Positions 19,869 to 20,867 of a DNA stretch of 64,000 nucleotides are shown here, one piece after another (within the stretch, counting starts at the first letter, position 1; the number at the start of each line of letters is the position of its first letter). The notes beneath the pieces are model-generated. The model saw only the letters and a list, made by a program, of their open reading frames with translations, was not told the DNA's origin and ran no database searches. The translations under genes were made by a program, and so were the position numbers. Origin of the DNA: a virus (Duplodnaviria > Heunggongvirae > Uroviricota > Caudoviricetes); IMG/VR virus record IMGVR_UViG_2724679236_000008; one strand, given 5' to 3'.

Positions 19869-20867
19869 TTATCTGCTACCGCGCGACGGTTTCTGCGTGA
19901 TAAACGTATCAAGCATCTTTTCCGCAATTGCCGACCAAGTGTGACACTGGACCTTTTCAGCATTTTTCACGCGATCAACGCGAGCAATAACCTCATCCCA
20001 ATCAATCCGCGACTTGATAACCATATGGTTCACCAAAGCCAGGCGATCCGGCGGAAGACAATCGGGCGGCGTTAATATCAACGCCCCACACATTGCCGCC
20101 TCAAGAACAGTTAATCCAAGACTTTCGGGATGCGTAACGATAAAAACGTCACTCTTACGCAATTCAGCTGCAAATTCGGTTGCTGGCACCGGCGTCCGTC
20201 TGTATGGGGTTACCGAAATATTCCCCGGATCAATGGTAACCAATCCGTCATCAGTCAACGTTCTGGCCTCATACGGAACGGTCAGGCGCTGAAGGTTCAT
20301 AAGGATACTTAAGGTGTGATCAAACCCACTAACATCAAATGCAGCGTGGTCTACAAAGATACGTAGAACATCGTCTGTTTTGGTTTCCAGATGGAACAGC
20401 TCCTGATTCGCTGCCCATCCAACATGTTTGTTAAAGCGATTATGACGCTCTAATCGGCCGGGATTATCCAGGTACCGCCAGGTATCATCGCGGACAGTAA
20501 AAGTAATATCGACTGGTGCCGAATCCAGCATAGAACCGTCATATACCTGGGCCACCCATCCAGTGAATCGGCGACACAGTTGCACGCCTATTTCCCTGGG
20601 CACCGTAGTAAAATACCGCAATCCTGGCGCTAAAATGGCTTTCGCAGAACACGAGGTCGCAGCTGTCAACACAGCCTCAACATAATCCTCCGGGCTTTCG
20701 ACGCTGGGGGAATATGGACGATGGTATTGCAATGTTACCCCAGCCTCAGTAAAGGCGCAGGCCAGGTTATAAGCCCACATTTCCGTATATGTTTTCACAT
20801 CACTGATGGCTTCAAATTTTCGCCCAATGATCAGGATGTTCATCGGCTTTTCCTCATTCCATTGCAT
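19869..20867 (-). CDS. glycosyltransferase group 1-like (GT-B fold) protein, 332 aa, translationally coupled to ban
   Basis: C-terminal ESLGLTVLEAAMCGALILTP resembles the GT-B nucleotide-sugar binding motif; start ATG overlaps the ban stop (TAATG). Confidence 0.45.
   Translation of the reverse strand: MQWNEEKPMNILIIGRKFEAISDVKTYTEMWAYNLACAFTEAGVTLQYHRPYSPSVESPEDYVEAVLTAATSCSAKAILAPGLRYFTTVPREIGVQLCRRFTGWVAQVYDGSMLDSAPVDITFTVRDDTWRYLDNPGRLERHNRFNKHVGWAANQELFHLETKTDDVLRIFVDHAAFDVSGFDHTLSILMNLQRLTVPYEARTLTDDGLVTIDPGNISVTPYRRTPVPATEFAAELRKSDVFIVTHPESLGLTVLEAAMCGALILTPPDCLPPDRLALVNHMVIKSRIDWDEVIARVDRVKNAEKVQCHTWSAIAEKMLDTFITQKPSRGSR

Follow-up and report, generated by a model that had tools for sequence, protein, structure and literature searches.

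Phage P1 gene dbn encodes a predicted GT4-like GT-B glycosyltransferase whose partners appear to be PmgO, PmgP and PmgQ rather than the Ban helicase

The gene that follows the replicative helicase gene ban in the 64,000-nucleotide window analysed here, a P1-like element, is by sequence the phage P1 gene dbn, already catalogued and not new. Its product is a divergent GT4-like glycosyltransferase with a predicted GT-B fold, to which we assign no target and for which retaining transfer from an NDP-sugar is only predicted. Judging from gene neighbourhoods, the real partners of Dbn appear to be PmgO, PmgP and PmgQ rather than the adjacent helicase. As these partners are predicted sugar transferases, Dbn most probably modifies a sugar chain of the cell surface and not DNA. 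We propose that Dbn has an accessory role in a module of four transferases by which an envelope glycan is built or altered, a proposal for which we consider the case evenly balanced.

Results

The region is about 96% identical in DNA sequence to P1, P7 and RCS47, where the matched feature is annotated as Dbn, Glt or a GT4-family protein. The protein is 96-98% identical to P1 Dbn (AAQ14048) and P7 Glt, and 100% identical to a protein encoded on the E. albertii plasmid NZ_CP117679.1. Residues 1-331 of 332 are covered by PHROG 2518 (E = 8.3e-237), which places the product in the P1 Dbn family. GenBank labels P1 Dbn "function unknown, possible glycosyltransferase", the gene is named glt in P7, and the RefSeq label in P1-like phage-plasmids is "glycosyltransferase family 4 protein". 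Length and neighbours (ban upstream, the convergent gene 5 downstream) match those of the P1, P7 and RefSeq entries, and there is no difference of substance between the window and P1. The protein has a mass of 37 kDa, is acidic in both domains (pI 5.6), lacks a transmembrane segment and is predicted to be soluble.

The gene is under purifying selection (median dN/dS 0.12) and its reading frame is intact in 81 of 83 P1-like loci; the P7 GenBank record carries a premature stop 22 codons past Met9. We found dbn in 473 plasmid records, with a match spanning at least 80% of the protein in 435 of them. Our scan of viral contigs returned near-identical P1-like contigs only, which served for the junction counts and dN/dS and are uninformative on diversity, and a scan of genome contigs with one genome per species gave no more than a single P1-like locus plus a fragment of 209 bases. 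The Dbn family is small and forms a group of its own (372 representatives at 50% identity, 127 of these at E<=1e-30); a word-indexed protein search seeded with the distant member P0020 yielded seven clusters, all nameless. Longer family members include fusions to a methyltransferase, to a second GT1 domain and to a weak hydrolase match, none of which indicates the acceptor.

Table 1. Position of dbn, its operon elements and the candidate partner genes in the window
Feature	Position	Strand	Details
dbn CDS	19869..20867	minus	332 aa from Met1 (ATG); start at Met9 (20843) gives 324 aa
ban, DnaB-type replicative helicase, 456 aa	20867..22237	minus	Pfam DnaB_C 5.8e-108, DnaB 3.3e-35; annotated Ban in P1
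ban/dbn junction	20865..20878	minus	GAGGA 20878-20874, 6-nt spacer, ban TAA 20869-20867, dbn ATG 20867-20865
Alternative in-frame dbn start	20841..20855	minus	GAGGA 20855-20851, 7-nt spacer, Met9 ATG 20843-20841
Bidirectional terminator hairpin between convergent dbn and gene 5	19822..19849	both	12-bp stem, U-run on each strand
Two overlapping C1 operator sites (Oban, formerly Op72), start of ban operon	24571..24598		consensus, 0 and 2 mismatches
tRNA, anticodon CAT (P1 trnI), inside ban operon	22519..22594	minus	ARAGORN; P1 annotation
pmgO, MptE-like/GT42-like (sialyl or Kdo transferase-like), candidate partner	13272..13934	minus	Pfam MptE-like 5.7e-5 (below cut-off); PHROG 4603
pmgP, MptE-like, candidate partner	12748..13374	minus	Pfam MptE-like 3.2e-4 (below cut-off); PHROG 2111, weak 4603
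pmgQ, GT-A, GT8/GT77-like retaining glycosyltransferase, candidate partner	11376..12077	minus	D79-L-D81 motif
ppp, lambda-type metallophosphatase	12074..12766	minus	Pfam Metallophos 1.4e-15

The first-pass annotation had described a 332-aa reading frame whose ATG overlaps the ban stop codon, and this holds: on the minus strand, an orientation on which it was silent, the two codons share one base in TAATG (20869-20865). It had also taken dbn to be translationally coupled to ban. Here, the tight packing against the helicase gene stands, and dbn closes the transcription unit that both genes share, the C1-repressed ban operon; Met1 at the TAATG, however, is only a plausible start codon, because Met9 has a GAGGA Shine-Dalgarno of its own, just as Met1 has, because Met9 is the start position of all non-P1 Dbn homologues and because residues 1-10 are modelled at low confidence (pLDDT 59). 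Moreover, an inserted 101-aa ORF separates ban from dbn in seven of the 81 P1-like contigs (variants L088-L094), and dbn begins at Met9 in these; an overlap of the form TAATG or TGATG is kept in the other 74.

C1 operator sites are frequent in the window (10 versus 0.28 expected), and the counterpart of the Oban pair controls ban according to the P1 annotation. At the other end, the ban-dbn unit is delimited by the hairpin lying between dbn and the convergent gene 5; the folding energies of this hairpin are -19.7 (minus strand, z = -4.1) and -20.2 kcal/mol (plus strand). The promoter/terminator scan had missed this hairpin, which folding confirmed. In a 3-kb promoter scan, a single promoter-like site was found, fewer than in shuffled sequence, and therefore the internal dbn promoters predicted in GenBank receive no support.

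The motif F-I-V-T-H-P-E248-S-L-G-L-T-V-L-E256, the AlphaFold model and the Foldseek comparison together make Dbn a clear case of a predicted GT-B glycosyltransferase, in line with the fold that the first-pass annotation had suggested and that a structure prediction could have contradicted. The motif corresponds to the GT4-type donor site, E-x7-E in the donor-binding, C-terminal domain; across 19 sequences reaching down to 39% identity, neither glutamate varies, and neither do 27 further columns. In the AF2 model (pLDDT 87.7, pTM 0.85), strands and helices alternate in both halves, giving two Rossmann-like domains, and the C-terminal helix (311-324) packs back onto the N-terminal domain as expected for GT-B. 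Foldseek returned 66 PDB matches at E<=1e-3; each of the best 50 of these 66 is either a GT-B glycosyltransferase or a UDP-sugar 2-epimerase of GT-B fold, with top TM-scores for PimB' (0.66), 7mi0 (0.64) and BshA (0.62). Among 99 BFVD matches at the same threshold, the best is a Tupanvirus glycosyltransferase (TM 0.74-0.78). Identity to solved structures is only 7-14%.

The profile search that had been recommended alongside the structure check gave a divided answer: PHROG 2518 is matched at 8e-237, whereas Pfam Glycos_transf_1 (PF00534) reaches 23.8 bits over residues 229-315 and thus stays under its gathering score of 26.4 bits. Because a precomputed PF00534 match is listed for the Dbn cluster representative P0001, we regard this assignment as borderline. 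Searches of PDB sequences with Dbn alone and with the family profile gave no significant glycosyltransferase match, NCBIfam gave a 14.8-bit match only, PADLOC gave no defence-related match, and we did not find the basic residues that are usual where the C-terminal domain begins. The best PDB match of the family profile, KtrA, was set aside as a generic Rossmann-fold match.

Outside P1, tblastn located homologues of PmgO, PmgP and PmgQ next to that of Dbn in seven loci of metagenomic or plasmid origin (L003, L009, L010, L097, L098, L099, L100) and in phage EP_H11 (L103). In five of these eight (L009, L010, L097, L099 and L103) the genes form a contiguous operon in the order pmgO-pmgP-dbn-pmgQ. 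Within the flanks read, none of the eight carries a DnaB homologue near dbn, and Ban was found only in the P1-like locus L095 among the loci examined by tblastn. The Dbn homologue in non-P1 loci overlaps or abuts whichever gene lies upstream, so the tight packing is generic operon compaction. Thus the suggestion that coupling to a replication gene is an unusual and telling feature is not supported: ban and dbn are neighbours in the P1 lineage only, where 7 of 81 contigs have them separated, and elsewhere the linkage is to PmgO, PmgP and PmgQ. The sample behind this comparison is small, with about five independent non-P1 phage lineages and five cellular contexts.

The four genes co-occur in the window as in all non-P1 phage loci examined. 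They are not contiguous in the window, where dbn lies about 6 kb from pmgO and the three pmg genes lie 6-8 kb from dbn. Tail and baseplate genes 26 to 5 and then pmgL-pmgN intervene between dbn and pmgO, and ppp separates pmgP from pmgQ, filling in P1 the slot that dbn has in the other phages. Pap and Ppp were considered as further module members and rejected, as neither has a homologue near Dbn outside P1. In the lambda-like phages (L009, L097, L099) the cassette immediately precedes the terminase and head genes, and in P1 the genes pmgL-pmgQ follow a late promoter and are named "putative morphogenetic" in the GenBank annotation.

Concerning the partners themselves, pmgP is a distant paralogue of pmgO. 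A combined PmgO/PmgP/WaaZ-like profile matches the sialyltransferase Cst-II at 1e-6, and hhalign relates PmgO and PmgP to the WaaZ-like family of capsule loci at E of about 3e-5 (3.4e-5 for PmgP), with a moderate probability of 72-73%. The AF2 model of PmgQ, built with database homologues (pLDDT 94.5), is matched by AgtA, glycogenin and LgtC at 1e-8 to 1e-7 in Foldseek, its profile matches PDB chain 6mw5 at 6e-6, and its DLD motif is invariant.

The nearest cellular relatives of Dbn (39-52% identity) are encoded in Kps-type capsule loci, immediately after an MptE/WaaZ_KDO_III-like gene. These loci carry genes for a KpsM/T-type ABC transporter, Poly_export (KpsD) and Capsule_synth (KpsC/S), and one of them (L102) also a CMP-sugar synthetase gene (CTP_transf_3). 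Neither the surroundings of dbn in the window nor the phage loci contain a Kps export or linker gene (KpsMT, KpsD, KpsE, KpsC/S). A 319-aa protein of the capsule loci was considered as a relative of Dbn or PmgQ and discarded, as hhalign finds no relation to either.

As to phenotypes, neither CRISPRi knock-down (PMC10695390) nor in-frame deletion (PMC9024508) of dbn, pmgO, pmgP or pmgQ causes a plaquing defect, and the P1 dbn deletion is among 24 mutants that combine normal plaquing with unchanged anti-restriction (PMC9024508). In the papers that we searched, neither P1 lysogens nor infected cells are described as having a surface or LPS phenotype.

Discussion

Based on these data, we propose the following course of events. 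Dbn would be made early after induction or infection, with translation re-initiating at the TAATG overlap or, alternatively, starting at Met9 from the latter's own ribosome-binding site. From the conserved gene association we infer that it works with PmgO, PmgP and PmgQ and not with the helicase; in P1, dbn would have been relocated behind ban, and ppp would have taken its former slot. PmgO and PmgP (GT42/MptE/WaaZ-like) probably use a CMP-activated ulosonic acid, for example CMP-Kdo, and PmgQ (GT8-like) would use a UDP-hexose. Because its relatives adjoin a WaaZ-like enzyme in Kps loci, once together with a CMP-sugar synthetase, Dbn itself most likely moves a sugar from an NDP-sugar to an acidic glycan of the Kdo type that is being extended. 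As acceptor we envisage a lipid-linked molecule of the envelope, either LPS core or a capsule intermediate, on the cytoplasmic side of the inner membrane; E. coli K-12 has no Kps capsule, and therefore LPS or another acceptor must be assumed there. Such a function would be accessory, changing the host surface while being dispensable for plaques on laboratory E. coli K-12. Guilt by association yields a pathway and not an acceptor. The acidic character of both Dbn domains is atypical of enzymes that dock on anionic membranes.

Instead of an envelope glycan, the four enzymes could put a short glycan on a virion or host protein during lytic growth. The late promoter and morphogenetic name of pmgL-pmgQ fit this reading, as does the location of the cassette next to the head genes in the lambda-like phages. 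The PmgO/PmgP profile also matches Maf (PDB 5mu5), a flagellin glycosyltransferase, and PmgQ resembles AgtA and glycogenin, both of which act on proteins. Likewise, the Dbn model matches GtfC, Gtf3 and the Actinobacillus glucosyltransferase 8xsg (TM 0.51-0.60), GtfC and Gtf3 being small GT-B enzymes acting on serine-rich adhesins, and its best viral match is the giant-virus enzyme. However, these structural matches are all generic for the fold, and the cellular relatives are found in capsule export loci and not in protein-glycosylation loci. In addition, each single-gene deletion plaques normally (PMC9024508), and the main text on the P1 virion proteome, a study in which glycosylation was not sought, makes no mention of it. 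We therefore hold protein glycosylation to be rather improbable. A small-molecule acceptor, in which Dbn would modify a metabolite, an antibiotic or a signalling nucleotide, for instance in counter-defence, seems considerably more remote, in spite of high-ranking structural matches to SnogD, OleD, BshA, SenB and a tetrahydrobiopterin glucosyltransferase. These matches are again generic for the fold, and the PADLOC search was negative; the conserved operon with three more glycosyltransferases and the relatives in capsule loci indicate an oligo- or polysaccharide product.

The first-pass annotation had itself raised DNA glycosylation; in this reading Dbn, co-produced with the helicase, would protect phage DNA against restriction. 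Co-transcription and overlap with the replicative helicase gene would suit this function, T4 DNA glucosyltransferases are GT-B enzymes, and the lowest E-value in the Foldseek PDB search belongs to a glycosyltransferase of phage HY126 (9ir0, 2.6e-8). This phage arabinosylates 5-hydroxycytosine in its own DNA (PMC13326640). As specific evidence for DNA modification, however, we rejected the match: the TM-scores of 9ir0/9iqz (0.53-0.57) lie below that of PimB', dozens of unrelated GT-B enzymes have similar E-values, and Dbn is structurally no closer to a DNA glycosyltransferase than to other GT-B enzymes. Outside P1 the linkage to the helicase is missing, in some P1-like contigs it is interrupted, Dbn is acidic, and no base-hydroxylating or hydroxymethylating gene was present in the Pfam-annotated flanks of the Dbn loci or in the inspected part of the P1 genome; the EP_H11 record lists hypothetical proteins only, with no base-modification gene among them. 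To our knowledge, common restriction enzymes cut P1 DNA in the usual way, and we know of no report of a modified, sugar-bearing base in it. Together with the relatives in capsule loci, the in-frame deletion of dbn, which leaves plaquing and anti-restriction unchanged (PMC9024508), makes DNA glycosylation by Dbn unlikely, to the point that we give it hardly any weight. Just as little credence is due to the idea that Dbn is the leftover of a split cassette and has lost its enzymatic function in P1. The sub-threshold Pfam score, the separation of dbn from its partner genes, the deletion without phenotype and the premature stop in the P7 record could be read in this way, but the frame is intact in nearly all P1-like loci at low dN/dS, E-x7-E and the further 27 columns are invariant, and most of the many plasmid records with dbn retain the gene at high coverage.

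Returning to the envelope glycan, a wider version of our proposal is possible but doubtful: P1 and at least four to five unrelated temperate phage lineages would share a mobile module of four enzymes, namely two CMP-ulosonic-acid (Kdo-type) transferase-like proteins, a GT8-like enzyme and the GT-B protein Dbn, the core pair of which would come from Kps serotype genes, and which would rebuild host LPS core or capsule intermediates in the lytic phase. If this is true, the benefit may be that the phage's own LPS receptor is removed from lysing cells and debris, or that competing phages are excluded. For dbn itself nothing changes, as the glycosyltransferase prediction has long been in GenBank. 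Taken together, however, four "unknown" or "putative morphogenetic" genes of a much-used phage appear to be one dispersed glycosyltransferase module, and these orphan genes obtain a single testable hypothesis, that P1, whose receptor is the LPS core, alters the host surface glycan. On the module view, knocking out single genes and scoring plaques on K-12 would have been the wrong test.

In comparison with known systems, Dbn shares with the retaining GT4 enzymes of the GT-B type (PimB', PimA, BshA and WaaG-type LPS enzymes) the two-Rossmann fold in which a C-terminal helix crosses back, the E-x7-E embedded in F-x-x-[PT]-[SH]-x-E-x-x-G...E-A and the lack of a metal (DxD) motif; it is shorter, with 324-332 aa versus roughly 360-400. 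With the alpha- and beta-glucosyltransferases of T4 and the HY126 arabinosyltransferase it has the GT-B fold and phage origin in common, but it comes without a base-modification pathway and without an anti-restriction phenotype, and the likeness ends at the fold. The serotype-specific glycosyltransferase sets (region 2) of ABC-transporter-dependent Kps capsule loci resemble the phage module in pairing a Dbn-type enzyme with MptE-like enzymes. The phages differ in having neither export genes nor a CMP-sugar synthetase, and they carry two MptE-like genes and the GT8-like PmgQ where the capsule loci have the 319-aa protein and a GT1 enzyme of about 690 aa. The proposed kind of function, alteration of the host surface glycan, is that of GtrABC of P22 and Shigella phages, by which a temperate phage alters the host surface glycan that is used as phage receptor. 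Gtr proteins are membrane-borne, work at the periplasmic face with an undecaprenyl-phosphate sugar and are expressed in the lysogen. In contrast, Dbn, PmgO, PmgP and PmgQ are predicted to be soluble cytoplasmic enzymes, belong to C1-repressed or late operons and show no homology to Gtr proteins; if the wider version of our proposal is true, they would represent a cytoplasmic, lytic-phase conversion of surface glycans, distinct from the Gtr and O-acetylase systems of seroconversion.

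Identity and conservation of dbn

The ORF directly downstream of the helicase gene ban is dbn, an already known and annotated gene, and the favoured explanation places its product in a phage-borne module of four transferases that would assemble or alter a glycan on a host envelope acceptor. Over 3 kb, the region shares 95.8-96.3% identity with phages P1, P7, RCS47, SJ46 and relatives, and the counterpart is annotated as dbn in P1 (“function unknown, possible glycosyltransferase”), as glt in P7 (“encodes putative glycosyltransferase”), as “putative glycosyltransferase, Dbn” in RCS47 and as “glycosyltransferase family 4 protein” in RefSeq. 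Over its full length the protein also matches PHROG 2518 (8e-237); it is 100% identical to a protein of an Escherichia albertii P1-like plasmid and is encoded by 473 PLSDB plasmids. Therefore, the glycosyltransferase prediction of the first-pass annotation is already in the public record. In the P7 record (AF503408.1), translation from the ATG equivalent to Met9, the second of two in-frame start candidates, stops after 22 codons, which is why glt appears there as a shorter gene of 864 nt, separated from ban by a gap; a frameshift or sequencing error may account for this early stop.

Among 83 P1-like loci, 81 have an intact ORF, the median dN/dS is 0.12 (1294 allele pairs), and dbn is maintained by selection. 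The family is small, with 22 clusters by word-indexed search and 372 representatives by exhaustive profile search. Two 320-kb Stenotrophomonas jumbo phages, CM1 (OP883945.1) and RAS14 (OP752703.1), carry a sequence that distantly matches residues 138-320, the C-terminal half of Dbn, at 28% identity.

Features of the dbn transcription unit, the module genes and the ban/dbn insertion
Feature	Position	Strand	Context or basis
dbn, 332 codons	19869..20867	minus	ORF in window
ban, 456 codons	20867..22237	minus	directly upstream of dbn; Pfam helicase domains
terminator hairpin, 12-bp, A-/U-runs at flanks	19822-19849	both	downstream of dbn
overlapping C1-repressor operator pair	24571-24598		about 4.7 kb upstream, start of the dbn transcription unit; GenBank: operator controlling ban
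pmgO	13272-13934	minus	tblastn
pmgP	12748-13374	minus	tblastn
pmgQ	11376-12077	minus	tblastn
ppp, lambda-type phosphatase gene	12074-12766		P1 slot between pmgP and pmgQ
inserted 101-aa ORF	L088 9699-10004 (also L089-L094)		between ban and dbn in P1-like viral contigs

The GT-B fold of Dbn

Evidence for a GT-B fold is thin from sequence searches alone and clear from structure and motif. The Pfam Glycos_transf_1 match is restricted to residues 229-315 and, at 23.8 bits, falls short of the 26.4-bit cut-off, while NCBIfam, PADLOC and PDB sequence searches returned nothing useful. In an alignment of 19 family members, down to 39% identity, 29 columns are invariant, including E248 and E256 of the GT4-type E-x7-E donor-site signature (F-I-V-T-H-P-E-S-L-G-L-T-V-L-E-A-A). 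From this alignment AlphaFold gave a confident model (pLDDT 87.7, pTM 0.85) with two alternating strand/helix domains plus a terminal helix. Using Foldseek, the model matched 66 PDB chains at E<=1e-3, and those listed were all GT-B glycosyltransferases or GT-B-fold UDP-GlcNAc 2-epimerases; among predicted viral structures there were 99 matches at E<=1e-3, led by a Tupanvirus glycosyltransferase (TM 0.74-0.78). The first-pass annotation was to fall if structure prediction gave no GT-B fold; the predicted structure has this fold, and the assignment stands. Dbn is acidic (pI 5.6), net negative in both domains and has no hydrophobic segment; it is predicted to be soluble.

The junction with the helicase gene

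The ban product is a DnaB-type helicase (Pfam DnaB_C, 5.8e-108; DnaB N-terminal domain, 3.3e-35). On the coding strand, the ban/dbn junction reads ...CAAGAGGATTATTAATGCAATGG..., with one base in common between the ban stop TAA (20869-20867) and the dbn ATG (20867-20865), and GAGGA lies 6 nt 5' of this Met1 codon. The overlap had been read correctly from the sequence, with the minus strand left unnamed. Met9 (20843-20841) is preceded at 7 nt by a GAGGA of its own, all non-P1 Dbn homologues start at its position, and the Dbn model is of low confidence over residues 1-10; the choice between Met1 and Met9 is ambiguous. The stop/start overlap (TAATG or TGATG) is kept in 74 of 81 P1-like contigs, and in the other seven an extra ORF separates the two genes and dbn starts at Met9, overlapping the stop of this ORF instead of that of ban. 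Ban gave no tblastn match in the flanks (up to 10 kb, shorter at contig ends) of any non-P1 Dbn-encoding locus; it was found in the P1-like control (L095). Non-P1 homologues overlap or abut an upstream gene that differs between lineages, and thus the tight packing is generic operon compaction and not a helicase-specific link. With an ambiguous start, a varying junction and no Ban in the flanks searched outside the P1 lineage, coupling to ban carries no particular meaning.

Between dbn and the convergent baseplate gene 5 lies the terminator hairpin, with a folding energy of about -20 kcal/mol on either strand, so that dbn closes its transcription unit, which starts at the C1 operator pair. In the window ARAGORN detected two tRNA genes in all, one of them for tRNA-Ser (anticodon TGA) at 23556-23642 on the minus strand; the equivalent stretch of the P1 record has upl/plp, with genes for tRNA-Thr and tRNA-Asn close by, so the accessory tRNAs of this element seem to be a different set from those of P1.

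Conserved partners of dbn

In an all-vs-all comparison of neighbour proteins, three families recurred beside Dbn homologues in phage contexts; they were located in the window by tblastn and named pmgO, pmgP and pmgQ from the P1 annotation. All non-P1 phage loci examined have homologues of all three. These loci are L003, L098 and L100, which are related contigs of phage-plasmid type and include a 95-kb Citrobacter replicon; L009, L097 and L099, three contigs whose head genes are of lambda type; the contig L010; and L103, the 111-kb coliphage EP_H11, which has been cultured. With dbn, the pmg genes form a contiguous, overlapping set of four in L009, L010, L097, L099 and L103, in the order pmgO-pmgP-dbn-pmgQ, with one small ORF before dbn in some and pmgO last in L010. 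P1 dbn lies about 6 kb off the pmg cluster on the same strand, beyond both an inverted tail and baseplate block and pmgL-pmgN, and its place in these compact cassettes is filled by ppp, which suggests that a gene was replaced or relocated in the P1 lineage. Most simply read, the four-gene cassette is present in P1 in split form. Near the glycosyltransferase genes, pap (9233-9739, minus strand) encodes a protein matching a HAD-type PNKP phosphatase domain (3e-11); no Pap homologue was found beside the module in other phages.

Together, Dbn and its partners are four predicted glycosyltransferases of three fold classes. PmgQ can be modelled with confidence as a GT8/GT77-like GT-A enzyme: its model (pLDDT 94.5) matched retaining GT-A enzymes from GT8 and GT77 at 1e-8 to 1e-7 in Foldseek (Skp1 galactosyltransferase AgtA, glycogenin, LgtC, GlyE, WbbM), its sequence contains an H-G-x-P-R-P motif as well as an invariant D-L-D, and its profile matches AgtA at 6e-6. 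PmgO and PmgP are distantly paralogous to each other, and both match the Pfam family MptE-like weakly. By hhalign, each aligns with the MptE/WaaZ-like family of capsule loci (E about 3e-5, probability 72-73%), and a joint profile of all three matches the Campylobacter sialyltransferase Cst-II at 1e-6, and Maf too; by sequence profile both look like MptE/GT42-like glycosyltransferases.

Cellular relatives in capsule loci

All readable cellular Dbn members lie in polysaccharide loci, directly 3' of an MptE-like/WaaZ_KDO_III gene. The two longest contigs (L101, L102) are complete Kps-type capsule loci, both with a KpsM/KpsT-like ABC transporter, Poly_export (KpsD), a roughly 690-aa GT1 enzyme and a conserved 319-aa protein; Capsule_synth proteins are KpsC and KpsS in L101 and a KpsC-like gene product in L102, where a CTP_transf_3 cytidylyltransferase gene immediately follows the Dbn-like gene. 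This context points to a polysaccharide with a CMP-activated acidic sugar, e.g. Kdo or a nonulosonic acid, whose partner sugar the Dbn-type enzyme would add. In another polysaccharide locus, a 509-aa protein (L004, 2999-4528) encoded immediately downstream of a full-length Dbn homologue joins a Glyco_transf_92 domain to an N-terminal part that shares 38% identity with Dbn residues 168-246, and so looks like a partial duplication or fusion.

Possible acceptors of the module

The first-pass annotation had linked the GT-B enzyme to replication and perhaps DNA glycosylation; the fold was borne out, the link to replication or DNA was not. Dbn does match the HY126 DNA arabinosyltransferase in Foldseek (PMC13326640), but no better than unrelated GT-B enzymes, and DNA glycosylation by Dbn is unlikely given the absence of a base-hydroxylation pathway from the Dbn flanks and P1 regions inspected, the non-conserved replication linkage, the acidic protein and the lack of an anti-restriction phenotype. 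In P1Cm clr100, dbn, pmgO, pmgP, pmgQ, ppp and pap have been deleted in frame, and 24 P1 deletion mutants, dbn included, plaqued without defect and with unchanged anti-restriction (PMC9024508). CRISPRi knock-down likewise found dbn, pmgO, pmgP and pmgQ non-essential (PMC10695390). A transcriptome preprint reports dbn as deregulated in an hfq mutant and nothing further on it, and our literature search found no paper giving dbn a function.

The main rival is protein glycosylation, which is favoured by late-gene placement and by resemblance to Maf, GtfC and AgtA. For an envelope glycan, the module would assemble or alter a glycan on a host envelope acceptor, with Dbn made early, after derepression of C1-controlled operons. 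WaaZ/sialyltransferase-like and GT8-like enzymes are classes that build LPS core. Given the anchoring of the Dbn family in capsule loci, partners that resemble these two classes, and the predicted solubility of all four proteins, the acceptor would most likely be lipid-linked on the cytoplasmic side of the inner membrane, as an LPS core or capsule intermediate. This acceptor, as well as a selective benefit, is what we infer and not a result.

Modest and testable by-products of this analysis are the association into a module and the ancestry in capsule loci. In P1, pmgO, pmgP and pmgQ are catalogued as ‘putative morphogenetic’ genes, but their products are glycosyltransferase-like, and in other phages they form one operon with dbn.
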